Origin: Candidatus Saccharimonadia bacterium
GTDB taxonomy: Bacteria; Patescibacteriota; Saccharimonadia; UBA4664
DNA length: 57,436 bases
Direction: 5' to 3'
Assembly (NCBI GenBank): GCA_038245115.1
Contig: JBBRSS010000006.1
Span: forward strand, 1-57,436
Numbering within the stretch: the stretch's first letter is position 1; the number at the start of each line of letters is the position of its first letter. Made by a program: the position numbers and the translations under genes. Below the pieces are notes generated by a model. That model was not told the DNA's origin and did not search any database. It saw nothing but the letters and a program-made list of their open reading frames with translations. This document shows positions 5,571-48,745 of this stretch, piece after piece.

Positions 5571-7453
5571 TGCGAAAACGCTTAGCAGCTATTTTGATGG
5601 TTTTCTCGGCGATATTGCCGCTATTGCAATCGGCCCCTGCTTCGGCGGCACCATATTATGCTCGCGCAGAGCATCGTGGTTACTTCACTAATGTTCTTGA
5701 CGAATGGGGGGGTAGTGTTCTGACGAATGGTATTCACCCTAGTCCGGCGCCGCTGTTGAATGGGAAGCTATGCACTGCGTCATTTATTGAGCAAATTATT
5801 GCATTTACGCAACAGAGTGCGGATTTAGAGTCTCTATATGGGGCGAAGTTCATTATTTTGACGATGCTTGGCGAGCCAGCCGGAGTCGATATGAACCTGG
5901 CGCATAGTTTGGCGGAACAGGCAAGATGGATTCAGCTGGTGACAATGTATTCGGACAACGGCTGGATTTCGTGGGGGCCGGCCTGCAAGGGCGTGAACGC
6001 AACCTATCAGTACAATACTTACTGGCAGGGTAACAATGGCGGTCAGCCCGGAGTGCAGCCTAATCCTTATGATGATGCTTGGTTTAATGACCCCGGCGGT
6101 TCGACGCCCGATGCAATCATTTTCCATAATCCGGCTAAGCCGACGGATTTCTATATGATCCGTGAGGAATGCGGCAATCCGATTGGTGATTTTCAGCCGA
6201 TTGGCTCGTCTATAGCCCCGTTTGCGATTACGCCTTCGGTAACTGTGACTGGGAGTGCTGGGAGCCCGACTCATCTTGAGCAGGGGCAACTTTACGCGAT
6301 TAACGCAATCGCAACTAATGGCGGTTCTGCGACACCAGATTTTACGATGAATGCCACCCCGACAGCTCCAGCCCCGCCAAAAGTTAGCGCGTTATCGCCG
6401 TTGAATATTTATTCCGGGCCAACTTCCTGGTCGGAAACGGGTTTCCCGGGGGCAGGGGGTACCCAGGTGGAGAGTTATAACTTAACAATATCTACCACTG
6501 TGCCCGATGGGTCGTGGATATGTTTTAGCAATACTATCAATCCGGCTTCATGGACGGCGGCCGCTGGATATGCGCCGGCGACTTCGCCACCGTTATGTCT
6601 TGAGGTATACAGCACGCGTTTCCCGACCGTCCAAGGTTTCAACGGCGATATCCACGCCGGCGGGGGGCTATGCTTGCCGGGGTCAAATACTCTAGGTACT
6701 CCGAGCTATCCCGGGTTTGTTTCCGGGAATTCAAACGGCGGGTCGTTCGGCCAGTATGTAGTATCGGCTTCAACTAGCATTAATCACTTTGGTTCGGCCG
6801 GGTCGCCGGGTAATACTGCTTTGACGACTCTGAATCTTGGTGCGGCTGGGGCGTACACTCAGGTGTGCCGACCGGATTTGCTGGATGCGGCAATCTCAAA
6901 ACGGCCGGCGGGCGCTCCGACGGTGTCGTCGCCGGTTGATGTGTCTGGGTTGAGCGGGGTGTATTACTTTGACGGGCCAGGAGACCTAAACGTATCCGGG
7001 ACGGTGGGGGCCTCGGTGACGATTGTGAAGACAAGCCCTATTGGGGTTGTTCGGGTTAACGGCAACATAACTCGGAATAATAGTTTTAGCTACGCGGCTC
7101 ACGGCGTGCCTTCGCTGGGGATAATAACAGATGGCAATATCGTAATTGCGGCTGGCGTGAAGCAAGTAGATGCGTACTTGTTTGCAAACGGGGAGATTGA
7201 TACGTGCGAGGAAGGTCAATCGGCAGTGCCAGCCACAAGGAAGCAGTGTTCGAACACCCTGGCAGTAAACGGTTTCCTGATGTCGAACAAAATCTCGTTT
7301 CGCAGGCTCGGGCCGGCGAACGTTTCCGGAGTTCAGACGGCCGAGAAGGTGACGTTATCGCCGCAAATTTATCTGAACCCGCCAAAGTTCTTTGACAGTT
7401 CTGTCGATGGCGGTTTTCTCGAAGGCCAGGGCGAGAAGCAGCCGTTGTTTTAG
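5567..7453 (+). CDS. Large secreted protein, pilus-operon paralog B
   Basis: 628-aa ORF with a Sec-type signal peptide (LAAILMVFSAILPLLQSAPASAAP). From about aa 218 to the end it is homologous to paralog A, with DNA runs such as tgcgaggaaggtcaatcggc shared. Confidence 0.85.
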   Translation: MMRKRLAAILMVFSAILPLLQSAPASAAPYYARAEHRGYFTNVLDEWGGSVLTNGIHPSPAPLLNGKLCTASFIEQIIAFTQQSADLESLYGAKFIILTMLGEPAGVDMNLAHSLAEQARWIQLVTMYSDNGWISWGPACKGVNATYQYNTYWQGNNGGQPGVQPNPYDDAWFNDPGGSTPDAIIFHNPAKPTDFYMIREECGNPIGDFQPIGSSIAPFAITPSVTVTGSAGSPTHLEQGQLYAINAIATNGGSATPDFTMNATPTAPAPPKVSALSPLNIYSGPTSWSETGFPGAGGTQVESYNLTISTTVPDGSWICFSNTINPASWTAAAGYAPATSPPLCLEVYSTRFPTVQGFNGDIHAGGGLCLPGSNTLGTPSYPGFVSGNSNGGSFGQYVVSASTSINHFGSAGSPGNTALTTLNLGAAGAYTQVCRPDLLDAAISKRPAGAPTVSSPVDVSGLSGVYYFDGPGDLNVSGTVGASVTIVKTSPIGVVRVNGNITRNNSFSYAAHGVPSLGIITDGNIVIAAGVKQVDAYLFANGEIDTCEEGQSAVPATRKQCSNTLAVNGFLMSNKISFRRLGPANVSGVQTAEKVTLSPQIYLNPPKFFDSSVDGGFLEGQGEKQPLF

Positions 7454-17892: not shown

Positions 17893-18405
17893 ATGCGCGG
17901 CAAATATATATCATTTGGAGAACGAGGCGATACCCTTATTGAGGTGACGATGGCTTTGGCCATTTTGTCTTCGGTGTTGTTGTCTTCGACCGTGATTGCT
18001 ACCCGGGCATCAACGCTGGGTCAGGTGGCGGCTGAAAGGACAAGATTGGCAGGTGAGGCCCAGGAACATGTTGAGTCTATGCATGGTTTTCGGGATAACC
18101 ATACCTGGGCAGAATTCTTGGATGGGCAGACCTCGCCATCGTATCAAGGCGTGTTGAGTGCCCGGAGCTCGATTGGGTGCAGAGTTACCTCTCCGTGTAT
18201 GCACATGGGGCTTAACCCGGCTTCGCACTTACCGTTGGGTGGCGGAGTGGCAGGTTCGGTTCCGGCTTCGTATATCGAGATCGCGATCGATCCAGATCCG
18301 GCGTCGACCCCGCCCCAGTTTGTGGACGTAACAGTCAGCTATGGGTTCGATAACCGTGGCGGGGGGGGCGCAAAGTACCGGGCATATCAAGACGCGGTTT
18401 ACTAA
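17893..18405 (+). CDS. Pilin-like protein, probably the 5' part of a frameshift-split modular pilin
   Basis: GERG|DTLIEVTMALAILSSVLL prepilin-type leader. The ORF stops 37 nt after a G8 run (18361-18368). Confidence 0.7.
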   Translation: MRGKYISFGERGDTLIEVTMALAILSSVLLSSTVIATRASTLGQVAAERTRLAGEAQEHVESMHGFRDNHTWAEFLDGQTSPSYQGVLSARSSIGCRVTSPCMHMGLNPASHLPLGGGVAGSVPASYIEIAIDPDPASTPPQFVDVTVSYGFDNRGGGGAKYRAYQDAVY

Positions 18406-19063
18406 TTTAGGGTTTGCAGTAGCTACCCTGCCACCACCACCGCCCCCGCCTCCGCCTCCGCCCCCGCCTCCGCCTCCGCCTCCGCCACCTGCCTGTACTA
18501 ATGGCCGAAGCGATATCGTATTGGTATTGGATGCATCGAGTAGTATGAATTTACCTTGGGATACGACAACTCGGGCGAATAAGCTCAGGAGCGTGGCGGC
18601 ACAGTTCGTGGATCAGGTTACGATTTCGGTGCTTGGTAATCACGGAGCCGCGCTCCAGTTTGAGCAGGTAGTTACGCTGTTGTCGCCGATGACTTCAAAT
18701 CAGGCTGCGCTCAAGGCAGCAATTGGAAGTTATACAACTGGGTTTAACACTCAGATCACTAAGGCTTTACAGGCGGCAAACGGGCTATTCGGGGGGCGTC
18801 CGCTAGCGCCGAAGGTTGTAGTGCTGGTATCTGATGGTGAGCCTAGCGCGGGCGATACGGTTGCGGCGGTGAAGAACCAGGCAAGCATTATGGCTGCGGC
18901 GGGCGTGAGAATATATACGGTTATGATCGGGGACCCAACACCCAACGCCTTAGATGTAATGAGCAACATACCGGCCAATGGCGGCACGTATGCCAACGCG
19001 CTAAGTGAGGCTCAGCTAGATGCGATGATGGCAAATATTGCGGCCATTGAGGCTTGTGACTAG
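18341..19063 (+). CDS. PolyPro-linker + von Willebrand factor A (vWA) domain protein, probably the 3' part of the split modular pilin
   Basis: 20 consecutive Pro codons, then DIVLVLDASSSMN (MIDAS DxSxS) and VVVLVSDGEPS. No signal peptide or TM of its own. It is in the +1 frame relative to ORF 17893-18405 and overlaps it by 65 nt. Confidence 0.75.
   Translation: MGSITVAGGAQSTGHIKTRFTNLGFAVATLPPPPPPPPPPPPPPPPPPPPACTNGRSDIVLVLDASSSMNLPWDTTTRANKLRSVAAQFVDQVTISVLGNHGAALQFEQVVTLLSPMTSNQAALKAAIGSYTTGFNTQITKALQAANGLFGGRPLAPKVVVLVSDGEPSAGDTVAAVKNQASIMAAAGVRIYTVMIGDPTPNALDVMSNIPANGGTYANALSEAQLDAMMANIAAIEACD
18361..18368 (+). repeat. G8 homopolymer at the junction of two overlapping reading frames
   Basis: The sequence ggc gggggggg cg was read directly. 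G7 or G10 would fuse ORF 17893 to ORF 18341. Confidence 0.9.
18431..18490 (+). repeat. Imperfect (CCN)20 repeat encoding 20 prolines
   Basis: cca cca cca ccg ccc ccg cct ccg cct ccg ccc ccg cct ccg cct ccg cct ccg cca cct. Confidence 0.95.
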
Positions 19064-20007
19064 TCGGGCTGGCGGGAAGATGGTTGGGACCTGTGGCTAT
19101 GGAATTTTTCGTGGACAGCTTTGAGCTGCGGGTCGGTGATGTGGGTGTAAATTTGCGTGGTGGAAATGTTGGCGTGGCCGAGTAGGCCTTGGACGCTGCG
19201 GATGTCGGCGCCATTGATGAGCAGATCGGTGGCAAAGCTGTGGCGTAGGGTGTGGGGGGTGACGTCTTTGGTGATTCCGGCCGCTATGGCATAACGTTTC
19301 ACCAGCCGCTGGACGCTGCGAACCGTGAGGCGGGTGTACATGCCGCCCTCGGCGCTATCTTGGGAGCCTGAGTAATGGATAAAGAGGGGCTTACCATCGT
19401 CGTGGCGGCTTTTGAGGTACAGATCGATCCAGTCGGCGGCGGTGGGGGAGATGAAGATGGGGCGGTCTTTTTGGCCCTTGCCGCGGACCATGAATTCGCG
19501 CCGGTCGAGGTTGATGTGGGTGGTATCGAGGTTGACCAGCTCGGACACGCGCAGGCCGCCGGAGAACAGTAGCTCGATGATGGCGCGGTCGCGCAGGCCG
19601 ATGGGGTTGGTGGTGTCGATGGCATCGAGAAGGCGCTCGACTTCTTCGGTTTCTAGGAAGGTTACTTGCGGGCGGACGGTTTTGGCGAGTTCGATTTTGG
19701 CGCTGTCGAGGGCGGCGATGTCGCGCTTGGCCAGGTACTTGAGGAAACTTCTTAGAGCTATGAGGTGGTAATTTTGGGTGGTTTTGGTGAGTTCGTTGCC
19801 GGAAACGTCTTTGATACGGTTGAGGTGTAGGCGCCATTGGCGGACCATTTCGGCGTTGAGCTTGGCGATGTCGCAGTCGTCGGTAAATTCGACCAGCCGC
19901 TGGAGGTAGTGGTCGTAGTTGCTGATGGTCTTGGGCGAGCGGTTCTGTTCGATCTCCAGGTGCTCCAGGAAGTCGGTGACGAGCTCGGATAGGTGTAGTT
20001 CGGCCAT
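19060..20007 (-). CDS. Tyrosine site-specific recombinase (XerC/XerD-like)
   Basis: 315 aa. N-terminal SAM-like core-binding region (FLEHLEIEQNRSPKTISNY). C-terminal HTLRHSFATDLL...GLLGHANISTTQIYTH (R-H-R-Y family motifs). Confidence 0.9.
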   Translation of the reverse strand: MAELHLSELVTDFLEHLEIEQNRSPKTISNYDHYLQRLVEFTDDCDIAKLNAEMVRQWRLHLNRIKDVSGNELTKTTQNYHLIALRSFLKYLAKRDIAALDSAKIELAKTVRPQVTFLETEEVERLLDAIDTTNPIGLRDRAIIELLFSGGLRVSELVNLDTTHINLDRREFMVRGKGQKDRPIFISPTAADWIDLYLKSRHDDGKPLFIHYSGSQDSAEGGMYTRLTVRSVQRLVKRYAIAAGITKDVTPHTLRHSFATDLLINGADIRSVQGLLGHANISTTQIYTHITDPQLKAVHEKFHSHRSQPSSRQPD

Positions 20008-20027: not shown

Positions 20028-20456
20028 TTATGCTTCTATGCTACCACGTCGCACAATCTGGGAGGGTAATTTTGTGGTGGTGCGCAGGAGTAGGCGCTGA
20101 ATGTCGGTGGGGGTTTTGTCGTTGAGAAAGCCTTTGCTTTTACCGATTTCGACGGCGTGTTGTTGGCGCAATAATTCTTCTTGTAAGCAGATCGAGCCGT
20201 GGGCTGAAATGGTGTAGTGGAGGCGTTCTTTGCCCGATTTACCTGCTGGGTGGCGGCCCGAGAGCTCAATGAGGGCTTCGTCGTGGAGGTGATCGATTAA
20301 TGCGTAGAGCCGGCTGTTGGTAAGGCTAATGCTGCCGAGTGAGCAGTTATATACGGCGCCCTTGATGGCGTAACCATGTAGCTCGTTGCCGGATAGCGCG
20401 AGTAGTACGTAGAATGCTTGAACTGAAATTGGTGGCGGCGGTGAATCTGGGTACAT
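20028..20456 (-). CDS. PadR-family winged-helix transcriptional regulator
   Basis: FYVLLALSGNELHGYAIKGAV...LTNSRLYALIDHLHDEALIE matches the PadR wHTH pattern. 142 aa. Confidence 0.7.
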   Translation of the reverse strand: MYPDSPPPPISVQAFYVLLALSGNELHGYAIKGAVYNCSLGSISLTNSRLYALIDHLHDEALIELSGRHPAGKSGKERLHYTISAHGSICLQEELLRQQHAVEIGKSKGFLNDKTPTDIQRLLLRTTTKLPSQIVRRGSIEA

Positions 20457-20489
20457 ACGGGCGCATCCGGGTAATGTAGTGATCGGATT

Positions 20490-20533
20490 TTAGTCTCTTT
20501 TGAAGACTAATTTTAAAAAGACTAATTTCGGGG
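20490..20533. promoter_or_regulatory. 43-bp conserved module, copy 1: palindrome TTAGTCT-N7-AGACTAA plus a third AGACTAA half-site
   Basis: ttagtctcttttgaagactaattttaaaaagactaatttcgggg, 34 bp upstream of the PadR start. Near-identical copy at 41682-41725. Confidence 0.6.
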
Positions 20534-20551
20534 AAGAGTTAAGCCGTGGGC

Positions 20552-20878
20552 TTACTCTTGGAGCGCTTGGAAAATCCAAACTAGACCGATCAGGATTAAC
20601 CCGACCATCATGTAAAGAATCCATTTTTTCTTCAAGATTATTGGAATGGACAGCATACAAATGGTCCCAATAACGATGAAGGGAAGACCGGATAACATGA
20701 TCAATACAAATATGTTTGTTCCGTCGACTGAGCCCATACCCACGCTGAAGGAGTTGAATATATATGCCAATATACCGATTACGATAAGGAATATCCCCAA
20801 AAGTCCTAAAGTTATGGAGAGTCGTAGCCGAGACCCTGCCTGTTTAGTTAGCTTATGGTCCGAGGGGGTAAATATCAT
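20552..20878 (-). CDS. Small polytopic membrane protein
   Basis: 108 aa with 3 strongly hydrophobic segments. AT-richer codon usage. Hairpin aagagttaagcc/ggcttactctt lies just downstream (20533-20563). Confidence 0.6.
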   Translation of the reverse strand: MIFTPSDHKLTKQAGSRLRLSITLGLLGIFLIVIGILAYIFNSFSVGMGSVDGTNIFVLIMLSGLPFIVIGTICMLSIPIILKKKWILYMMVGLILIGLVWIFQALQE

Positions 20879-20935: not shown

Positions 20936-22180
20936 TCATGCATTCAACGCGGGTAGGTGTCGCCAGTGCTTGATCGTCCAATTGGCTGCAATGCTTGTCC
21001 AGCCTTTATTTACATAGAGTAGATGTGCGCACTTTTCGCCTTTCAGTTTGCACCTAGCTGCATTTATAGTCGAGTAGTTGCAAATTGGATCATTATTTGT
21101 GCAGTAACTTTTAACGTTGGGAACCCAAATGTTCTCGATGACTCGCATGTCGGGGACAACGAGTTGATATATACCTGAGAGGTTCTTATCGTAATTGCCC
21201 TCATCAACAGCAGGTTGGTTGGGATTGAACCGAGGATCGCCGATGAGTATCAACGCAGCAATGTGCCCTTTCTCTGTGGTGGTTAGGTAGGCGAATTCAT
21301 CGCCAGCTACTTGGGCACCTTGGCTGTAACCAGCCAAGATTACGTAGGTGTGAGGGCAGTCGACGATGAATTTGGTGAGAAAGGCATCGAGAGAGTCGCG
21401 GCCTTTGGCCATGCTTTTTTCGTACTCACTCAGGTAGTTAATGCCGTCATAGCCAACTGCGATTGCCGGGTAGTCAATTGGGGTGCTTTTGGTGCCGGAG
21501 ACCTTTTTCTCGATGATGTCTTTGATATTCCCCACGGTGTTGCCGTAGCCTCCCGCATCGTTCTTGGTTTCACCGGAGCCTCGCACCCCCACAAATTGGA
21601 GTTTGGGGCAGTTGATGGGCTTTGGCGGAGGCGTTGGGCTGGGAGAGGGCGTGGGCACGGGGGTAGGGATCGGAGTGGGAGTAGGAGTTGGTGTTGGGTC
21701 TGGTGGCGTGGCGTACCAGGAGGGGTCATTGATGAGTAGGGGCTTCGACCAGTCAGAGGGGATACCGCTCTGAAGATCTGCCCGGACCATTAGGTAAAGG
21801 GTGACGTTTGGGTCTTGCTCGCTGATGTCGATGAGAATATGCAAAGGGCTGGCAATGGGTGTGATCGTCGGATCATACGAGATTACATTCACGTTCATTG
21901 TGTCGTCCGGGGTTGGGGCAGTACTGGAGAGGGCGTAGCCATACTCGAACGAGTTCGCGAAGTAGCCACTTTCCCAGCCCGGGGGCGTGGTGGCGGTGAT
22001 GGCTCGCTGGGTAATGACGGGCGGTTGGGCGGCATCAAGGCTGAGCACGGGTCCGGGAGCGATCATGTACATGGCGTTGGCCGAGGGTAGGTCGCTTACG
22101 AGGGTGGTGAGCAAGATTAGGATGGAGGGGATAATTAATAGTTTCTTGGAACTGCGGCGGCGGAAGATGCGGGTAAGCAT
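20936..22180 (-). CDS. Secreted cutinase-like serine esterase with an N-terminal extra domain and a Pro/Thr linker
   Basis: Signal peptide, linker PDPTPTPTPTPIPTPVPTPSPSPTPPPKP, then a cutinase-type nucleophile elbow LAGYSQGAQV with Cys pairs. Confidence 0.7.
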   Translation of the reverse strand: MLTRIFRRRSSKKLLIIPSILILLTTLVSDLPSANAMYMIAPGPVLSLDAAQPPVITQRAITATTPPGWESGYFANSFEYGYALSSTAPTPDDTMNVNVISYDPTITPIASPLHILIDISEQDPNVTLYLMVRADLQSGIPSDWSKPLLINDPSWYATPPDPTPTPTPTPIPTPVPTPSPSPTPPPKPINCPKLQFVGVRGSGETKNDAGGYGNTVGNIKDIIEKKVSGTKSTPIDYPAIAVGYDGINYLSEYEKSMAKGRDSLDAFLTKFIVDCPHTYVILAGYSQGAQVAGDEFAYLTTTEKGHIAALILIGDPRFNPNQPAVDEGNYDKNLSGIYQLVVPDMRVIENIWVPNVKSYCTNNDPICNYSTINAARCKLKGEKCAHLLYVNKGWTSIAANWTIKHWRHLPALNA

Positions 22181-29255: not shown

Positions 29256-29331
29256 TGGTGCCCCAGGAGGGAATCGAACCCCCGACGCTCTCCTTAGGAC
29301 GGAGACGCTCTATCCACTGAGCTACTGAGGC
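29256..29331 (-). tRNA. tRNA-Arg (anticodon CCU), copy 1
   Basis: rc = GCCTCAG TA GCTC AGTGGATA GAGC G TCTCC GTCCTAA GGAGA GCGTC GGGGG TTCGATT CCCTC CTGGGGC A CCA. The full cloverleaf was folded by hand. Confidence 0.9.
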
Positions 29332-29370: not shown

Positions 29371-29763
29371 ATGAGCGGATCGAAATCAGCTAACGAAAAA
29401 CAGTTTCCGGGGCAGCACGATGGCGAGGTGGTGCAGTTGGTGTTTCGGCAGCATCCGCTGGTGATGCGCAAGGTGCTGGTTATTGGCTTGCTGGTGAAAA
29501 TTATGCTCGGTGTGGTGGTTTTGGTGCTGGCAGGGTGGTTTTACCGATGGATGGGCTGGTACTACTCTCTATGTCTAGTAACAGATCGGCGCATTCTCGT
29601 AATAAAGCAAAAAGGGTTCTTTAACCTCACGGTCGATGAGTGGCAACTCGACGGCATATCGAACGTGAATTACCACATTGGTGCGGCATCATTAAACAGG
29701 TTAGAACGATACTTCGGAGTTATAACGCCACCACTGGCTAAGCGGCTAGCTTTTCTTGTATAA
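29371..29763 (+). CDS. bPH (YdbS-like PH-domain) membrane protein, shortened paralog of ORF 31536-32075 (possibly decaying)
   Basis: N-terminus FPGQHDGEVVQLVFRQHPLVMRK and core WYYSLCLVTDRRILVIKQKGFF..DEWQL..ISNVNYHI match the paralog. It lacks ~24 aa of the TM region. The C-terminus is unrelated and overlaps the murB-like gene. Confidence 0.55.
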   Translation: MSGSKSANEKQFPGQHDGEVVQLVFRQHPLVMRKVLVIGLLVKIMLGVVVLVLAGWFYRWMGWYYSLCLVTDRRILVIKQKGFFNLTVDEWQLDGISNVNYHIGAASLNRLERYFGVITPPLAKRLAFLV

Positions 29764-30800: not shown

Positions 30801-30875
30801 TGGTGCCCAGGAGGGAATCGAACCCCCGACGCTCTCCTTAGGACGGAGACGCTCTATCCACTGAGCTACTGAGGC
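30801..30875 (-). tRNA. tRNA-Arg (anticodon CCU), copy 2, with a 1-nt deletion in the 3' acceptor strand
   Basis: Identical to copy 1 except the plus strand reads tggtgccc-agg instead of tggtgccccagg. The 3' acceptor strand is CTGGGC, one G short, so the acceptor stem cannot pair fully. Confidence 0.75.
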
Positions 30876-31535: not shown

Positions 31536-32075
31536 ATGAGCAATAACAAATCGAAATCGGTGGCGGCGAAGGAATTCCCGGGGCAACACGATGGCGAAGT
31601 CGTAGAGTTGGTGTTTCGGCAGCATCCGTTGGTGATGCGTAAGACGCTGATAGGGGGATTGCTGGTCATTTTGCTGGCGGTATTGCCGCTGGATTTCCCT
31701 CAGGTTTACACTGTAGAGGGGCTGCCGGGGACGCTGGTAAAGGTGATGTGGGTGCTGGTGGCACTAGTGATTTTTCGATGGTTTTACCGCTGGGTGGGTT
31801 GGTACTACACCATATACATTGTGACCGACCGCAGGCTGCTGGTGATTAAGCAAAAAGGCTTTTTTGACCGCAAGGTGGATGAGTGGCAGCTCAACGTGAT
31901 TTCGAACGTTAATTATCATATTGCCGGGTTTCAAGCTGTATTGTTTGGCTTCGGCGATATAACGGCGCGGACGTATATTGGTGATTTGGAACTCAAGACA
32001 ATTCACAAGCCCGCGGAGATTCATGCGCAGCTGCTGGATGCAGTACGCAGGGGCGGCGGTGGGTCGACACAGTGA
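31536..32075 (+). CDS. bPH (YdbS-like PH-domain) membrane protein, full-length paralog
   Basis: 179 aa. Two TM segments, then YYTIYIVTDRRLLVIKQKGFFDRKVDEWQLNVISNVNYHIAGFQAVLFGFGDITARTYIG, a pattern typical of bacterial PH (bPH_2) proteins. Confidence 0.75.
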   Translation: MSNNKSKSVAAKEFPGQHDGEVVELVFRQHPLVMRKTLIGGLLVILLAVLPLDFPQVYTVEGLPGTLVKVMWVLVALVIFRWFYRWVGWYYTIYIVTDRRLLVIKQKGFFDRKVDEWQLNVISNVNYHIAGFQAVLFGFGDITARTYIGDLELKTIHKPAEIHAQLLDAVRRGGGGSTQ

Positions 32076-34282: not shown

Positions 34283-34343
34283 CACCCCCTCGGGGCATTA
34301 CTCATCTCTTTGAGATCGGAATGCCCAGGAGGGGGTTATTTCG
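34283..34343 (+). repeat. Hairpin element E1 (terminator-like), paralog of E2
   Basis: Arms CCCCCTCGGGGCAT ... ATGCCCAGGAGGGGG, 22-nt loop, T-rich tail. The arms are identical to those at 35368-35420. Confidence 0.7.
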
Positions 34344-34463
34344 TATCTATTTATACGGAGTAGTTCCAGGCTCCACTTGTTCTGGTCCGCTAACGATTAT
34401 TGTATTTCAAAATTGACCTCGATACCGTGCGCCTCGATTGTCTCGATCTTCGATTCTGAGCTA

Positions 34464-35365: not shown

Positions 35366-35432
35366 CGGCCCCCTCGGGGCATCCACCGTTTCATTGATTC
35401 GGAGATGCCCAGGAGGGGGCATTTTCATTTTT
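35366..35432 (+). repeat. Hairpin element E2 (terminator-like), paralog of E1
   Basis: CCCCCTCGGGGCAT-22 nt-ATGCCCAGGAGGGGG followed by CATTTTCATTTTT. Confidence 0.7.
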
Positions 35433-35531
35433 ACGCATAGTGAAATTGGTTTAAATCTCATACTTTCAGACTCGTTTATAGCTATTTTATATACCGCGAC
35501 CGACACGGGTTGTTTTTGTTATACTGAGCCC

Positions 35532-40985: not shown

Positions 40986-40996
40986 ATGGATTAATA

Positions 40997-41020
40997 CTTC
41001 CCTTATGGGGAGTTTTTGTT
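40997..41020 (+). terminator. Rho-independent terminator after tRNA-Gly
   Basis: Stem cttccc/ggggag, loop ttat, then TTTTTGTTTT. Confidence 0.6.
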
Positions 41021-41518
41021 TTGAGCCTGTTGTTATCTTTGGCGAGATACGATATACCAGATCTGAGATATCCGACTCCCGAAGGGAAGCATGATGATCT
41101 GGTTCCTAGTTACAATGTTGGCGGTAATCTGATGCCGTCGGCCAAGCGTGGTTCGCGGAGGCGGATGGTGGGTGTGGCACTCAGTGCTGAGGACATCAAG
41201 CCCGTTGTTGAGTTTTCTTACAAGTTTCTCCTGCTTGTTCAGCTGAACGAGTACGTTTCGGGGAGGGGCGAGGCGCCGACATTGCCAGACCCAGTGGCTA
41301 ATAAGTTCTTATGTACGGCGGAAGGAAAGAAGGCAGCCGAACGTTCGGGGTCCATTTACTCTGAAGCCTTCGACCTGCTTTGTGAGTTTTACGCATCAAT
41401 GTTCGAGTCTCCGCCCAGTAAGCGCGATTTGAATGAAGTGATTGATGCAGCAGATAGGGTGTTGAATGGGCTTATTCGACGCCTGAATTGCATGGCAGTC
41501 CAGCCGAAGGCTGATTAG
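41021..41518 (+). CDS. Hypothetical protein (orphan); start uncertain
   Basis: 165-aa ORF from TTG 41021, which directly abuts the terminator T-tract. ATG 41132 is the more plausible start. No motif recognised. Confidence 0.4.
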   Translation: MSLLLSLARYDIPDLRYPTPEGKHDDLVPSYNVGGNLMPSAKRGSRRRMVGVALSAEDIKPVVEFSYKFLLLVQLNEYVSGRGEAPTLPDPVANKFLCTAEGKKAAERSGSIYSEAFDLLCEFYASMFESPPSKRDLNEVIDAADRVLNGLIRRLNCMAVQPKAD

Positions 41519-41681
41519 CTATCCAGGTGTCTGACATGGTCATCTACAACCCAACCGGACAATTGAGCAATCGCTGACTGGCCAAATGACTTAGGCCCCG
41601 GTAACCAACCCGGCGTGTTTCTCCGGCGATAACGGAGAATAAACATTTTGATAGGGCTCCGGGGATAGTAATTATCGCAAA

Positions 41682-41725
41682 TTAGTCTCTTTTGAAGACT
41701 AATCCAAAAGAGACTAATTTCGGGT
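41682..41725. promoter_or_regulatory. 43-bp conserved module, copy 2
   Basis: ttagtctcttttgaagactaatccaaaagagactaatttcgggt. 39 of 43 nt match 20490-20532, in the same orientation. Confidence 0.6.
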
Positions 41726-41757
41726 GGGGTATCCAGGGTGGGCTTAACCTCAGGGGG

Positions 41758-41766
41758 TGCTATAAT
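41758..41766 (+). promoter_or_regulatory. Extended -10 promoter element (TGcTATAAT)
   Basis: tgctataat at 41758-41766. ATG 41774 follows 7 nt later, so the transcript may be leaderless or have a very short leader. Confidence 0.4.
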
Positions 41767-41773
41767 TCCATTC

Positions 41774-42178
41774 ATGAAAGGCATCCAGCCATTGGGCTCG
41801 TTTCGGCGAGCTGTTCGAGAACTTACCAGCGATGTGCTTAGCCAGCGCTTTTTTCATGATCGGCTGTCGATGGCAGTATTGATTGCGGCGGTGGGCGTGA
41901 ACGCGGTGAGTTTGGTGAGTTTGGTTCTGCGGCTGCGCCCAACGGATGGCGAGGTGCCGGTGCACTTTTCGAGTTTTACCTGGTTCGACAGATTGGGCCC
42001 CTGGTATTTTCCGTTTGAGATTGCGGTAGTGTCGATAGGAATCACGGTGATTAATGCGGTGTTTGCGTATCATAGTTTTAACCGGAGCCGGCTGGCGAGC
42101 TTCTTTTTACTGATGACGGCGACAGTAGTGAGTGTATTTGGGTTTATTATTGCGCAAGCGTTTGGGGCGGTGCGATGA
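41774..42178 (+). CDS. Small polytopic membrane protein (first gene of the GT2/WecA operon)
   Basis: ATG 41774 (the ORF track starts at GTG 41738). 3 TM segments. ATGA overlap with the GT2 gene. Confidence 0.6.
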   Translation: MKGIQPLGSFRRAVRELTSDVLSQRFFHDRLSMAVLIAAVGVNAVSLVSLVLRLRPTDGEVPVHFSSFTWFDRLGPWYFPFEIAVVSIGITVINAVFAYHSFNRSRLASFFLLMTATVVSVFGFIIAQAFGAVR

Positions 42179-43869
42179 GTAGCTCCGAAGTGGTCGTGAG
42201 CAAGAATAGGTATTACGACCAGCATTGGTTCACGCGGGCGATGGAGATATTGCCCGGAAGTGTAACTTGGCTGACTTTGTTGTTGCCGATTTTACTGAGC
42301 GTGATGATGCCGATAGCTGTGGCGTATTTCATTATTGCTTATGATTTGTATTGGACGATTAAGTCGTTTCGGATGAGCGGCAACTTGATTCGAGGGTACC
42401 GGCGACTGCATGTGGCCCAGAGTATTGATTGGAATGGGCGGCTTGAGCAGCTACGGCATTTAGACAAGAGCTTACGGCAGTGTGATGATGCGTTGGCAGA
42501 CATGCGGGTGGCACACCCCGGGGTTGAAAATATTTGGAGCCTAGCGGGAAGGAAATTGAAGTCGCAGTATCGCGGTCTGTTGGGTGAAAAAGCGCGGGTG
42601 GCAGATTTGGCGGTGCGGGCCAATGAGATTATGAACCCGACCGAACTTTATCACGCGGTAGTTTTGGCCACATACAACGAATCGATGGATATTTTGTACC
42701 CGTCCGTAAAGACGCTGACGGAAGTAGATTTTCCGTTGAAGCAGATCATGCTGGTGGTAGCCTACGAGGAGAGGGGGGGTCCAGAGACAGAAGCCAACGC
42801 GCATTCGTTGGTGGCGGAGTTTGGTGATAAGTTTGCGATGGCAATTGCCGTGAAGCATCCGGACGGAATGGCGGGTGAGGTGCGCGGTAAAGGTGGCAAC
42901 ATTAGTTACGCCGGTCGGGTACTGACCCAGCAGGTGCGCGAGCGCGGTATTGATCCGGAGCGGGTTATTGTAACTACGTTTGACTCTGATCACCGGGCGG
43001 CAACAAATTACTTTAGTTACTTGTCGTACCTGTACGCTACCGATGTTAATCGGGTGCAACGAAGCTTTCAGCCGATTCCGATGTTCTATAACAATATTTG
43101 GGACGTGCCGGCGCCGATGCGGGTGATTGCCACCGGCAACTCGTTTTGGATGCTCATGGAGACGATGCGGCCGCATCGATTGCGTAATTTTGCAGCACAT
43201 GCGCAGTCGCTGGCGGCGCTGATAGCAACCGATTACTGGAGCGTGACTTCGATCGTGGAGGACGGGCATCAGTTTTGGCGCACATATTTTGTATTTGATG
43301 GCAAACACGAGGTGGTGCCGATATTTACTCCGGTGTACCAAGATGCGGTGCTGGCCGGGACTTATCTGAAGACATTTAAGGTGCAATTTTTGCAGCTGCG
43401 TCGATGGGCGTGGGGGGTGAGCGATTTCCCGTTTGTGGTCCGTAATTCTTTGGCCAACAAAAAGATTCCTTGGGGCAATAAATTGGTGCAAACTGGTCGG
43501 TTGTTTGAATCGCATTTTTCCTGGGCGACAGCGCCGTTGATTTTGACATTCGTGGGTTGGTTGCCGCTGTATCTGAACAAGGGGTTTGCCTACCAATCGT
43601 TGGCGCATAATTTGCCGATTATTACTTCGAGAATCTTAACTTTGGCCTCAATATCGATTGTGGTGAGCATATGCCTAAGCTTAATTTCGTTGCCGCCCAA
43701 GCCGGAGAGGTACCGCAAAACGCGGTTTATCGGCATGCTGGCTCAGTGGGTACTCCTGCCGGTGACTAGTATCTGTTTTGGTGCCCTGGCGGCCCTAAAT
43801 TCGCAAACGCGGTTGATGTTTGGTAAATATCTGGAATTTTATGTGACCGAGAAAGCAACCAAGAAATAA
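42175..43869 (+). CDS. Processive family-2 glycosyltransferase (cellulose/chitin-synthase-like membrane synthase)
   Basis: 564 aa. VLATYNES, TTFDSDH (DxD-like) and FLQLRRWAWG (QxxRW), with TM helices at both ends. Confidence 0.8.
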   Translation: MSSSEVVVSKNRYYDQHWFTRAMEILPGSVTWLTLLLPILLSVMMPIAVAYFIIAYDLYWTIKSFRMSGNLIRGYRRLHVAQSIDWNGRLEQLRHLDKSLRQCDDALADMRVAHPGVENIWSLAGRKLKSQYRGLLGEKARVADLAVRANEIMNPTELYHAVVLATYNESMDILYPSVKTLTEVDFPLKQIMLVVAYEERGGPETEANAHSLVAEFGDKFAMAIAVKHPDGMAGEVRGKGGNISYAGRVLTQQVRERGIDPERVIVTTFDSDHRAATNYFSYLSYLYATDVNRVQRSFQPIPMFYNNIWDVPAPMRVIATGNSFWMLMETMRPHRLRNFAAHAQSLAALIATDYWSVTSIVEDGHQFWRTYFVFDGKHEVVPIFTPVYQDAVLAGTYLKTFKVQFLQLRRWAWGVSDFPFVVRNSLANKKIPWGNKLVQTGRLFESHFSWATAPLILTFVGWLPLYLNKGFAYQSLAHNLPIITSRILTLASISIVVSICLSLISLPPKPERYRKTRFIGMLAQWVLLPVTSICFGALAALNSQTRLMFGKYLEFYVTEKATKK

Positions 43870-44924
43870 TGATGTACTTGCTCGGGTTTGGGTTAGCCTT
43901 CGTATTGAGCGCAGGTTTGACGCCTTGGGTGCGGCGGTATGCCTTGGCACACGGAATTGTGGACCGGCCATCGACGAATCGCAAGATTCATACTCGTGAG
44001 GTGGCTTATTTGGGCGGGGTGGCAATATTTGCCGCGTTCGTGATAGCGGTGATGATATTCTTGCCGATGTCGCGCCAACTGGCGAGTTTGCTGTTGGGCT
44101 GTTTGATTCTGGTGGCGGTGGGGGTGGTGGATGATGTCCGAGATCTGTCGCCAGGGGTGAAGCTGGCGGGCCAGTTTGTGGCGGCGGGAGTGGCCCTGGC
44201 CGGGGGGATCGGGATTACCACGATTACTAATCCGTTTGGTGGGGTGATTGATCTGAGCTGGGGACGGATGAACTTTGAGCTGTTGGGCGCGCAGTTTCAC
44301 ATTACGCCGGTAGCGAATATTTTGAGCTTGTTGTGGATGGTGGGGCTGGCGAACACCATTAATTTTCTGGACGGGCTCGACGGTTTGGCGTGCGGCGTAT
44401 CCGGGATTGCTGCGCTGGTGATGTTCATGGTGGCGGTAGGGCCAAACGTGAATCAGCCGGCGGTGGCGCTGTTGGCAATTATTTTGGCGGGCTCGGCTTT
44501 GGGATTTTTGCCGCACAATTTTTACCCGGCCAAGATATTTATGGGCGATTCCGGGGCGTATTTTTTGGGGCTGACACTGGCAATGCTGTCGATTTACTCT
44601 GGGGCTAAGCTGGCCACGGCCGCTCTGGTACTGGGTTTTCCGATTCTTGATGCCGTTTGGGCAGCGGTGCGGAGAATTTTGAGAGGAGTGTCGCCGTTTT
44701 CGGCTGATCGTCAGCATTTTCATCATTTATTGCTTGATGCGGGGCTGAACCAGCGACAAGCGGTATTGGTGGTGTACTCGGTGGTAGCGGTATTTGGAAT
44801 GGTGGCGCTAACTTCGAGCACGACAATAAAATTAATTGGCTTTGCGGTTTTGGTATGCGTGATGATATTGGCTATGGGCGGGTTGTTTTTGCGGGATCTG
44901 TCGAAACGCCGAAAAAAGTCTTAG
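43869..44924 (+). CDS. Polyprenyl-phosphate N-acetylhexosamine-1-phosphate transferase (MraY/WecA family, GT4)
   Basis: NTINFLDGLDGLA and FMGDSGAYFLG motifs. 351 aa, polytopic. Its start overlaps the GT2 stop by 1 nt (TAATG, shared A at 43869). Confidence 0.85.
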   Translation: MMYLLGFGLAFVLSAGLTPWVRRYALAHGIVDRPSTNRKIHTREVAYLGGVAIFAAFVIAVMIFLPMSRQLASLLLGCLILVAVGVVDDVRDLSPGVKLAGQFVAAGVALAGGIGITTITNPFGGVIDLSWGRMNFELLGAQFHITPVANILSLLWMVGLANTINFLDGLDGLACGVSGIAALVMFMVAVGPNVNQPAVALLAIILAGSALGFLPHNFYPAKIFMGDSGAYFLGLTLAMLSIYSGAKLATAALVLGFPILDAVWAAVRRILRGVSPFSADRQHFHHLLLDAGLNQRQAVLVVYSVVAVFGMVALTSSTTIKLIGFAVLVCVMILAMGGLFLRDLSKRRKKS

Positions 44925-47356: not shown

Positions 47357-47911
47357 ATGTTAGACACGACTGGTCTGGTAATTGTGATGGTTGGTCCGCC
47401 GAATGCCGGCAAGGGGACTCAGGTAGAGCTATTGGCGGAGCACTTGCAGGCTGTACATTTTTCGGTTGGAGACCTATTGAGGACGGAAAATAATCCCGAC
47501 ATTATGGGTTATTTGAATGAGGGCGGGTTAGTTCCCTCGGATCATATTCGTGAGCTGTTGTTGCAGGCGATTTCCAACGTGCCATTGGAGCAGCCGATTG
47601 TGTTTGATGGAGCTAAGAAGCTGGCTGAGGCGCAATGGTTGGTGGACTTTTTACCAACCGTTGGCCGGCGTCTAGAGCGTGTTATTTCGCTGGTTCTAGA
47701 TGAGGCTGAAGCTCGCAAGCGCAGTGCCAAGAGGGCTAGCGGTAGGCCGGATGATGCTCCTGAGCTGCAGGGCAAGCGGTGGAGGATGTACCATGAGGGT
47801 GTAGTGCCGGCATTGGATTTTTATCGTAGCCGGGGATTGTTAGTTGAGGTCGATGCATTGGGATCGGTGGATGAAGTCGCTGAGCGGGTTTGGCAAGTCT
47901 TGGCGGCATGA
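47357..47911 (+). CDS. adk: Adenylate kinase (short, LID-less type)
   Basis: ATG 47357 gives MLDTTGLVIVMVGPPNAGKGTQVELLAEHL (P-loop GxPxxGKGT). 184 aa. Confidence 0.75.
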   Translation: MLDTTGLVIVMVGPPNAGKGTQVELLAEHLQAVHFSVGDLLRTENNPDIMGYLNEGGLVPSDHIRELLLQAISNVPLEQPIVFDGAKKLAEAQWLVDFLPTVGRRLERVISLVLDEAEARKRSAKRASGRPDDAPELQGKRWRMYHEGVVPALDFYRSRGLLVEVDALGSVDEVAERVWQVLAA

Positions 47912-48492
47912 GTGGCCGGCGGATCGGGTTGCTCACGGGTACGTTTGACCCTATACATCTGGGGCACATTGCTATGGCTAGGGCGGCGCAGGGTGCCTGT
48001 GAGCTTGATGAGGTGTGGTTCCTGGTAAACCCCGCTCCGGCGCACAAGAGCGGCGTGACGGCGCTTCAGGACCGCGTGGCGATGGCGCGGTTGGCGGTGG
48101 CGGGCGAACCGGCGATGAGGGTGGGGGTGCCGGATGGCGATGCGGAGCTGGCGACGCACACGATGGCCGAGTTTGGGCGGCTGATGGATAGGTATCCGGA
48201 TACGGAGTTTGTCTTTATTGTGGGAATTGATGTGCTGGGGTCGCTTCAGGGCTGGGAAGACGCCGAGCGGGTGCGCGAGCTGAGCTTTGCTGTGGCGCGG
48301 CGGCGGGGGTTTTCGGAGATAGCGCTGGATAAGCGTTTGCGGGTGCAATGGTTTGATCTGGCCGAGCATGCCGAGGCGTCTTCGCGTCGGGTGCAGGCTG
48401 ATTTGCGGGCTGGTGAGCGGCCGGTCGAGCTTGATGATGGGGTGCTTGAGTATGTTCGGGAGCGGGGGTTGTACGGGGCGAAGGCGAGCTAG
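47908..48492 (+). CDS. nadD: Nicotinate-nucleotide adenylyltransferase
   Basis: IGLLTGTFDPIHLGHIAMA ((H/T)xGH motif). ATGA overlap with adk. Confidence 0.8.
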   Translation: MSGRRIGLLTGTFDPIHLGHIAMARAAQGACELDEVWFLVNPAPAHKSGVTALQDRVAMARLAVAGEPAMRVGVPDGDAELATHTMAEFGRLMDRYPDTEFVFIVGIDVLGSLQGWEDAERVRELSFAVARRRGFSEIALDKRLRVQWFDLAEHAEASSRRVQADLRAGERPVELDDGVLEYVRERGLYGAKAS

Positions 48493-48633
48493 GCTGAAAT
48501 GTGTACGATTGTGATGTATTTTTTACTACGAAAACAGCTAATTTTTCGGGTAGTGACGCCCGAACTTATTGCGGTTAAGGCCGAGGGTAGCTAGTAGCTA
48601 GAAATTACTCCCTTTTTGGGTAGTATTTTTTAG

Positions 48634-48647
48634 AGACTAATTTCGTG
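48634..48647. promoter_or_regulatory. Partial copy of the conserved module (AGACTAATTTCG)
   Basis: agactaatttcgtg at 48634-48647. A more degenerate copy (cagctaatttttcgggt) lies at 48533-48549. Confidence 0.4.
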
Positions 48648-48745
48648 TAAGTAGTAATCCCCGGGTGGCGGCGTGGGGGAATTTTTGCTTGTGCTTGCGT
48701 TCGGTATACGTTCGGTATAGTATCGAGAGCGAAGGGGCTCGAACT

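Follow-up and report, generated by a model that had tools for sequence, protein, structure and literature searches.

A predicted PadR operator and its duplicate beside an envelope operon in a Saccharimonadia contig

A stretch of 57,436 nt from Candidatus Saccharimonadia bacterium (contig JBBRSS010000006.1), called the window below, contains the same palindrome-bearing sequence twice in the same orientation: once in front of padR, a gene for a PadR-family regulator, and again 21 kb away, in front of a set of envelope genes. I propose that the first copy is an autoregulatory PadR operator, that the control region holding it was duplicated beside the envelope operon, and that PadR would bind at the second copy as well. 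I would put the probability of this reading as a whole at about 0.65. The part of it that concerns the first copy stands on firmer ground: copy 1 is very probably the operator and promoter of padR and of a transcription unit that probably includes the adjoining gene, xer, for an Xer-like recombinase.

The kind of element is already known, and nothing here overturns existing ideas about PadR autoregulatory operators. In this case the motif is non-canonical and the phylum poorly studied; what sets the locus modestly apart is the duplication of its control region. The ultra-small Saccharimonadia and other bacteria of the Candidate Phyla Radiation (CPR) have few regulators, and little is known of how they regulate transcription. 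I came across no characterised operator for this group, and a single full-text search gave no title on a characterised PadR regulon in Saccharibacteria.

The palindrome in front of padR

The features at copy 1 are as follows.

19060-20007, minus strand: gene for the Xer-like tyrosine recombinase (Pfam Phage_integrase and SAM_1)
20028-20456, minus strand: padR, encoding a 142-aa PadR-family winged-helix regulator
20466-20557, minus strand: module copy 1, the native intergenic control region between a gene for a 108-aa membrane protein and padR
20487-20516, minus strand: sigma-70-like promoter toward padR, TTAAAA (20516-20511), 18 nt, TAAAAT (20492-20487)
20490-20525, minus strand: operator copy 1, predicted from half-sites A, B and C
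20490-20496: half-site C, TTAGTCT, proximal to padR
20504-20510: half-site B, AGACTAA, forming a 7-7-7 palindrome with C
20519-20525: half-site A, AGACTAA, forming with C an outer inverted repeat of 36-bp span
20552-20878, minus strand: gene for the 108-aa hydrophobic protein, upstream of padR, its stop codon inside module copy 1

The repetition itself is beyond question. An exact 22-mer, TTAGTCTCTTTTGAAGACTAAT, stands on the plus strand at 20490-20511 and again at 41682-41703; shuffled sequences give no match to it, even with 3 mismatches allowed. The two copies agree at 39 of 43 positions (20490-20532 against 41682-41724, the mismatches falling at 20512-20514 and 20518), and in both the third AGACTAA starts 15 nt past the second. 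The original prediction took the module to be these 43 bp. The true repeat is longer: a repeat search extends it to 67 nt at 82% identity (20466-20532 against 41658-41724), and an ungapped alignment continues through a common GTGGGCTTA to 20557 and 41749, with 67 of 92 positions identical. Copy 1, at this length, takes in the tail and stop codon of the 108-aa gene, a hairpin, the three half-sites, the -10-like box and part of the 5' untranslated region. The window holds no copies beyond these two and the partial one at 48634. There the dodecamer AGACTAATTTCG, exact at 20519, 41711 and 48634 (13 matches in the window with up to 2 mismatches, against 3.4 expected), had been read as a fragment of the module; the match is real, but it is actually the right arm of a third inverted repeat of 36-bp span, considered in the last section. 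A second supposed fragment, at 48533-48549, is only weakly similar and is given no weight.

Both genes downstream of copy 1 are as originally described. PadR scores 31.0 bits with Pfam PF03551 over residues 17-92, where the gathering threshold is 27; it reaches just 27.7 with NCBIfam padR_acidobact, whose cutoff is 101.8. Residues 17-94 align by sequence to the PadR structure 9qbc in PDB (E=0.008). The recombinase passes the cutoff of NCBIfam XerA_Arch (238 bits, cutoff 220) and falls below the equivalog cutoffs of XerD (252, cutoff 330) and XerC (246, cutoff 335). Its gene shares the strand of padR and begins 20 nt beyond it, so that the two are probably co-transcribed. In the near clade they have stayed neighbours: xer follows padR directly in one relative (L021; Xer fragment of 94 aa, 90% identical) and after a 104-aa open reading frame (ORF) in another (L005; 22 aa, 95% identical). 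An 85-aa counterpart of the 108-aa gene is found in L003 and L005.

A consensus scan of copy 1 calls TTAAAA-18-TAAAAT on the padR strand, with the -10 box overlapping half-site C. A promoter had also been suggested on the plus strand (TTGAAG-17-TAATTT); its letters are there, but the same scan fails it.

The case for an operator comes chiefly from comparison of seven lineages of padR orthologues. Their upstream regions, read in the padR sense, are given here with the identity of each PadR to that of the window.

Window, PadR 100%: GAAATTAGTCT-TTTTAAAA-TTAGTCT-TCAAAAG-AGACTAAAAT
L019, PadR 83%: GAAATTAGTCT-TCAAAAG-AGACTAAAAC (two half-sites)
L003/4/5, PadR 76%: GAAATTACTCT-CATTTAAA-TTACTCT-TTAAATG-AGAGTAAAAT
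L020, PadR 74%: GAAATTACTCT-TATTGGA-ATACTCT-TCTGAGA-AGAGTAAAAT
L021, PadR 61%: AAATTAGTGACATTT-N12-AAATGTCACTAAAAT
L006, PadR 54%: TTACTTAAATTT-N12-ATTTTTAAGTAAAAT
L009, PadR 52%: TTACATAAATTT-N12-AAAATTTTAGTAAAAT

In all seven an inverted repeat lies just 5' of the conserved MYP start of PadR. Five of the lineages have an outer span of 36 bp; the exceptions are L020, with 35 bp, and L019, with 21 bp. The arm proximal to padR runs on through AAT into a -10-like TAAAAT in six of seven (the window, L003, L020, L021, L006 and L009), and L019, L003/4/5 and L020 have sequence homologous to copy 1 at the orthologous site. L006 and L009 carry the gene in different surroundings, beside glmS and a mannose-6-phosphate isomerase gene in the first and PIG-L and a solute-binding protein gene in the second, with no recombinase within 10 kb, and the motif is still with padR.

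The half-sites change in concert. All three read TTAGTCT/AGACTAA in the window and TTACTCT/AGAGTAA in L003 and L020; L021 has TTAGTGA/TCACTAA. A half-site in direct repeat that changes along with the palindrome is what one would expect if a single protein recognised each half-site. The regulator changes too: in an alignment of 16 PadR homologues the predicted recognition helix reads LTNSRLY where the arms are of the G type and LTTSRLY where they are of the C type. One of the two readings first offered for the palindrome was an operator of PadR, autoregulatory and possibly serving a small regulon. Conserved position, conserved span and arms that co-vary with PadR all speak for it.

The spacing between element and gene is of interest in itself. 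TAAAAT ends about 8-10 nt before the ATG in L003 (9457-9473), L020, L021, L006 and L009, so near in these five lineages that their padR mRNAs are probably leaderless or nearly so. The proximal arm ends 11-13 nt short of the MYP start in these same five; the distance is 23 nt in L019 and 33 nt in the window, both of which have acquired a longer padR leader.

It is established that members of the PadR family bind inverted repeats and control their own genes (PMC4534193; PMC3506622), and several dimers of one of them, LmrR, are reported on its own promoter (PMC4534193). The sequences, their pattern of conservation, the insertion described below and the synteny are observed. Which protein binds, with what stoichiometry, whether it represses and what, if anything, it does at copy 2 are predictions from them. 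A winged-helix PadR dimer would bind half-sites of the form AAWTTAGTCT. The first dimer would occupy the 7-7-7 palindrome (B and C), overlapping the -10 box TAAAAT, and a second would probably sit on the distal half-site A, for 36 bp of occupied DNA. PadR so bound would block RNA polymerase and repress padR, until some ligand or signal released it.

This arrangement resembles that of LmrR, which in Lactococcus lactis represses lmrCD and its own gene: each system has a small winged-helix dimer of the PadR family (here predicted), an inverted-repeat operator in the regulator's own promoter and a related one at a promoter elsewhere, not linked to the first. They differ in the motif, TTAGTCT-N7-AGACTAA with a third half-site (36-bp span) rather than the canonical ATGT-N8-10-ACAT (PMC3506622), and in the second site, which here can be shown to have been duplicated recently from the first. 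The low identity of the present PadR to solved PadR proteins (E=0.008) sets it apart as well. With PadR/padC of Bacillus subtilis and with bcPadR1/2 of Bacillus cereus (PadR-s1, PadR-s2) the window's system has in common the Pfam PadR domain and, by prediction here, a recognition helix alpha-3, a dimer dyad aligned on the operator dyad and a link to genes of envelope stress or detoxification (PMC3506622). At 142 aa, however, the protein lies between the two subfamilies in length, the sequence and span of the operator differ, and the host belongs to the CPR (Patescibacteria).

A copy of the control region beside an envelope operon

Copy 2 sits between a 165-aa ORF (41021-41518, plus strand) and an operon on the plus strand.

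41658-41750, minus strand: module copy 2, a 93-nt lineage-specific insertion duplicating copy 1
41682-41717, minus strand: operator copy 2 (predicted), with TTAGTCT at 41682-41688 and AGACTAA at 41696-41702 and 41711-41717
41758-41766, plus strand: extended -10 promoter of the gene for a 134-aa protein, TGCTATAAT (TGnTATAAT), conserved in all relatives
41774-44924, plus strand: conserved envelope operon, the candidate new target, encoding two membrane proteins (134 aa and 564 aa) and a transferase of the GT4 family (Glycos_transf_4)

The region upstream of the 134-aa gene was compared in relatives whose 134-aa proteins are 77% (L017, from the same sample as L005), 82% (L018), 78% (L013/14) and 76% (L015/16) identical to that of the window. 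None of them has the module at the orthologous site; the window alone has 41658-41750, and in the relatives the flank runs directly into cagg(g/a)gtgYtataattc and then the ATG. The left boundary is sharp, since L017 has the same left flank (…ggcgataacggagaatWaaca…tagggc). The insert corresponds to 20466-20557, which is nearly all of the 95-nt intergenic region upstream of padR together with the last codons and stop of the 108-aa gene. Copy 2 thus holds the counterpart of a stop codon that belongs to that gene (the segment is GAGTAA in copy 1 and GGTTAA in copy 2), and copy 1 must therefore be the source. There is no padR paralogue or pseudogene beside copy 2, as judged by tblastn.

How the insertion came about is suggested by its ends. 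Each junction shows a short similarity, GGGC at the left one and GGAGYGCT at the right one (GGAGCGCT in copy 1 against GGAGTGCT in the empty site of L017), and neither terminal inverted repeats nor a target-site duplication is seen at 41658/41750. A microhomology-mediated templated duplication is therefore the most economical origin. Copy 2 would then be an ectopic duplicate of nearly the whole padR intergenic region, inserted at microhomologies, whose flanks drifted afterwards while its half-sites were kept. The insertion ends 10 nt upstream of TATAAT, so everything beyond about -22 of that promoter was replaced.

It is the pattern of divergence that argues for function at the new place. The copies differ at 25 of 92 positions and at none of the 21 positions in half-sites (hypergeometric P=4.5e-4). 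Changes in the spacer between A and B have moreover perfected the outer repeat, and the operator of copy 2 now lies within inverted arms of 16 nt that match perfectly (41679-41694 and 41705-41720). PadR is likely to bind here, to go by these half-sites, and the envelope operon, or a divergent transcript on the minus strand, is a candidate for regulation through copy 2. One may go further and suppose that the operator was copied and pasted by template switching, after which selection kept the half-sites alone and perfected the outer palindrome. That fuller history is tentative, and I hold it to be possible rather than probable.

If that fuller history is right, a regulon has been caught early in the act of gaining a member by copy-and-paste of an operator, in a CPR genome that is reduced and very poor in regulators. 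Copy 2 would be a natural example of a binding site that reached a new promoter through duplication of a control region and not through point mutation. Binding of PadR to it would link the regulator to envelope glycosyltransferase genes and, through the operon that padR would share with xer, to how the chromosomal recombinase Xer is expressed. The padR locus offers a testable pair of regulator and operator, with footprints from seven lineages, a non-canonical motif and a 36-bp architecture.

A stretch of about 670 nt downstream of tRNA-Gly, which holds the 165-aa ORF, is found only in the window (40986-41657) and in L017 (613-1155); L013-L016 run from tRNA-Gly straight to the next promoter. 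The ORF has 41% protein identity between the two. A block of about 60 nt (41596-41657) is far better conserved between them than the ORF is, and this block could also provide the first 18 codons of a mini-ORF on the minus strand. That mini-ORF, of 44 aa, was considered as a gene driven by copy 2 and rejected: its first 18 codons, conserved in L017, exist there without the module.

Points against the proposal and other accounts

Several observations weigh against the proposal. The canonical pair is missing: no ATGT-N8-10-ACAT occurs in 20457-20551, and the element is therefore like a PadR operator but with a different motif. The correlation between helix residue and arm base may reflect a single evolutionary event. 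The middle half-site is missing from the distant orthologues, which leaves the geometry, one dimer or two, uncertain. The count of copies covers only the 57-kb window, about 6% of the genome if the genome is of an assumed 1 Mb or so. At copy 2, the -10-like box on the minus strand has gone from TAAAAT to TAATTT and the promoter scan no longer calls one; downstream on that strand there is only the doubtful 44-aa ORF (41515-41646). As for the plus strand, about 56-91 nt separate the half-sites of copy 2 from the predicted start of the operon downstream, and they do not reach its core promoter, so simple occlusion of RNA polymerase fails as an explanation.

The last three points favour another account, in which only copy 1 is functional and copy 2 is a neutral accident of replication or repair, a templated micro-duplication that binds nothing consequential or titrates a little PadR. 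An insertion unique to the window's lineage fits that account too. The intact half-sites would then be due to chance or to a short patch of gene conversion, and the spacer CTTTTGA, also identical in both copies, could belong to a recent conversion tract. Against this, the 25 changes among 92 positions have spared every half-site, with the probability already given, and drift would not be expected to change the spacer in such a way that a perfect 16-nt inverted repeat results. I regard a neutral copy 2 as unlikely, though it deserves to be taken seriously.

Suppose instead that some other regulator binds the sites and padR is merely one of its targets, or that the module is a small non-autonomous mobile element. 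Two to three sites within 57 kb might suggest as much, given the small fraction of the genome in view. The motif, however, tracks padR through three gene neighbourhoods and co-varies with PadR, and the ends of the module coincide with native intergenic borders and carry none of the marks of transposition, neither inverted repeats at the termini nor a duplicated target site. No family of such elements came to light when 185,579 species genomes and Joint Genome Institute (JGI) metagenomes were scanned for the pattern of three half-sites, scans that recovered neither the window's own genome nor the metagenome of L003 and so say little about copy number genome-wide. Both forms of this idea seem to me very improbable.

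What those scans did return can be set aside. The only match among species genomes (L002), in an AT-rich metagenome-assembled genome of Bacilli, lies between convergent genes with no PadR. At 5577-5612 of CAKOOW010000026.1 it has the exact pattern TTAGTCT-AAACTTT-AGACTAA-TTTTTTTA-AGACTAA, and it is probably a coincidental hairpin of the bidirectional terminator kind. Two metagenome matches (L011, L012) likewise have no PadR, and their number is that expected by chance.

Might the palindrome act in RNA, as a terminator or attenuator of the 108-aa gene or within a small RNA, with the third half-site serving as an alternative pairing? Read in the minus-strand sense, both copies fold better than shuffled sequence (copy 1, z = -4.0; copy 2, z = -5.0), there is an 8-bp hairpin of -7.1 kcal/mol, and the paired changes in L003 and L021 preserve the complementarity of the arms. 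The stem, however, is weak, AU-rich and without a U-tract. A terminator scan is empty in both modules, its lone match near copy 1 (20587-20607, minus strand) falling outside them, within the 108-aa gene, and scans with Rfam and for tRNA find nothing at either copy. If transcription starts after TAAAAT, the palindrome would lie outside the padR mRNA, which would count further against a role in RNA. Finally, half-site A went from G to C along with B and C, and recognition of each half-site by a protein is the simpler explanation of that. A function in RNA I hold to be very improbable too.

The least probable account of all is the second one originally offered, that the palindrome is a core or dif-like site of the neighbouring Xer-type recombinase and that its direct copies would excise or merge the 21-kb interval. 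It has a certain appeal. Inverted arms surround an identical, asymmetric spacer of 7 bp in both copies, which are in direct orientation, and adjacency of padR and xer is kept in the near clade. In Streptococcus and Lactococcus the difSL site adjoins xerS. The likeness to XerS/difSL and XerC/D-dif goes no further than inverted arms around a centre of 6-8 bp with an Xer-type gene close by.

The chromosome does not behave as that account requires. Comparison with relatives finds continuous core chromosome at both ends of the interval from 20.5 to 41.7 kb: synteny covers padR to ndk in L003 and the SurA-like gene to dinB in L013-L016. The interval contains five tRNA genes, gdhA, ndk and uppP, the recombinase gene lies outside it, and copy 2 is a 93-nt insertion rather than the junction of an element. 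For the same reasons (housekeeping content, synteny in L003 and L013-L016, integrase outside) an integrated element bounded by att repeats was rejected. A dif site should be single, whereas two full copies and a partial one are found in 57 kb. Every 2-kb bin over positions 1-56000 of the window has a positive GC skew (0.06 to 0.32); with no switch in skew, neither copy is at a terminus, and the window lies within one replichore. The strand richer in G is the plus strand, on which most of the genes lie.

Nor do the sites vary as substrates of Xer would be expected to. Their arms differ (TTAGTCT, TTACTCT, TTAGTGA) in relatives where the Xer fragments are 90-95% identical (L021, L005). In the window padR separates the site from xer, and in L006 and L009 the site has stayed with padR where xer is absent. 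The Xer-like recombinase is thus best seen as a neighbour of the palindrome, which is unlikely to be its substrate.

The third candidate site and other features of the window

A third, weaker candidate for a PadR site lies at 48605-48640.

48605-48640, plus strand: candidate third, weaker site, TTACTCC-N22-AGACTAA, 36-bp span

The pattern TTASTC-N24-GASTAA has 3 matches in the window where 0.24 would be expected. The right arm of the third site and its flank, AGAGACTAATTTCG, are identical to those of copy 2. It lies between a CTP_transf_like (cytidylyltransferase-like) gene at 47890-48492, called nadD-like by synteny with L013-L017, and an operon of an 86-aa ORF and dinB. Conservation of the site cannot be demonstrated in L015 and L017, where this intergenic region is highly variable. 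Downstream of it, at 48661-48686, comes a terminator-like hairpin, and by comparison with L015 the left arm of the site may be what is left of a terminator stem.

The promoter region that comes next, at 48695-48745, is strongly conserved upstream of the 86-aa ORF and dinB (Pol IV), with counterparts at 16890-16945 in L015 and 7690-7745 in L017. It consists of TTGCGT-17-TAGTAT with a tandem 11-nt direct repeat, GTTCGGTATAC GTTCGGTATAG, a candidate for a damage-response (SOS-type) operator.

Homologues of a protein from the window carry source names that place it in Candidatus Saccharimonadia (TM7), and the gene content is in keeping with such a chromosome. It includes seven tRNA genes, gdhA, ndk, uppP, nrdR, dinB and the gene for ribosomal protein L25. 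Upstream of copy 1 the neighbouring gene is cutinase-like.

20936-22180, minus strand: cutinase-like gene, upstream neighbour at copy 1

Pfam, NCBIfam and PHROG give no informative match to the 108-aa ORF, the 134-aa protein or the 165-aa ORF. The 564-aa membrane protein of the envelope operon has no Pfam match above threshold; it may have a role like that of a glycosyltransferase.

Repeats of other kinds are present. Two tRNA-Arg(CCT) genes (29256-29331 and 30802-30875) stand 1.5 kb apart with a common 70-nt core that is 100% identical. Beside the pair are paralogous genes with the bPH_3 domain (29371-29763 and 31536-32075; 71-77% DNA identity), and between the tRNAs a FAD_binding_4 gene. The whole suggests a local segmental duplication about 2.2 kb long. 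A 65-nt repeat at 71% identity (34285-34349 and 35369-35433) folds alike in its two copies, into a long hairpin of the form CCCCCUC-GGGGCAU…AUGCCC-AGGAGGGGG (energies of -34 and -37 kcal/mol, with z near -5). The copies have different inner stems, and behind the hairpin comes a tail rich in U. They resemble large intrinsic terminators built to a common design, placed after two genes of the plus strand.

Near the N-terminus of a protein with a VWA domain (gene at 18341-19063), a run of GCC/ACC-type triplets at 18430-18489 encodes a proline-rich tract. This gene and xer are convergent, and their 3' ends overlap by 4 nt.

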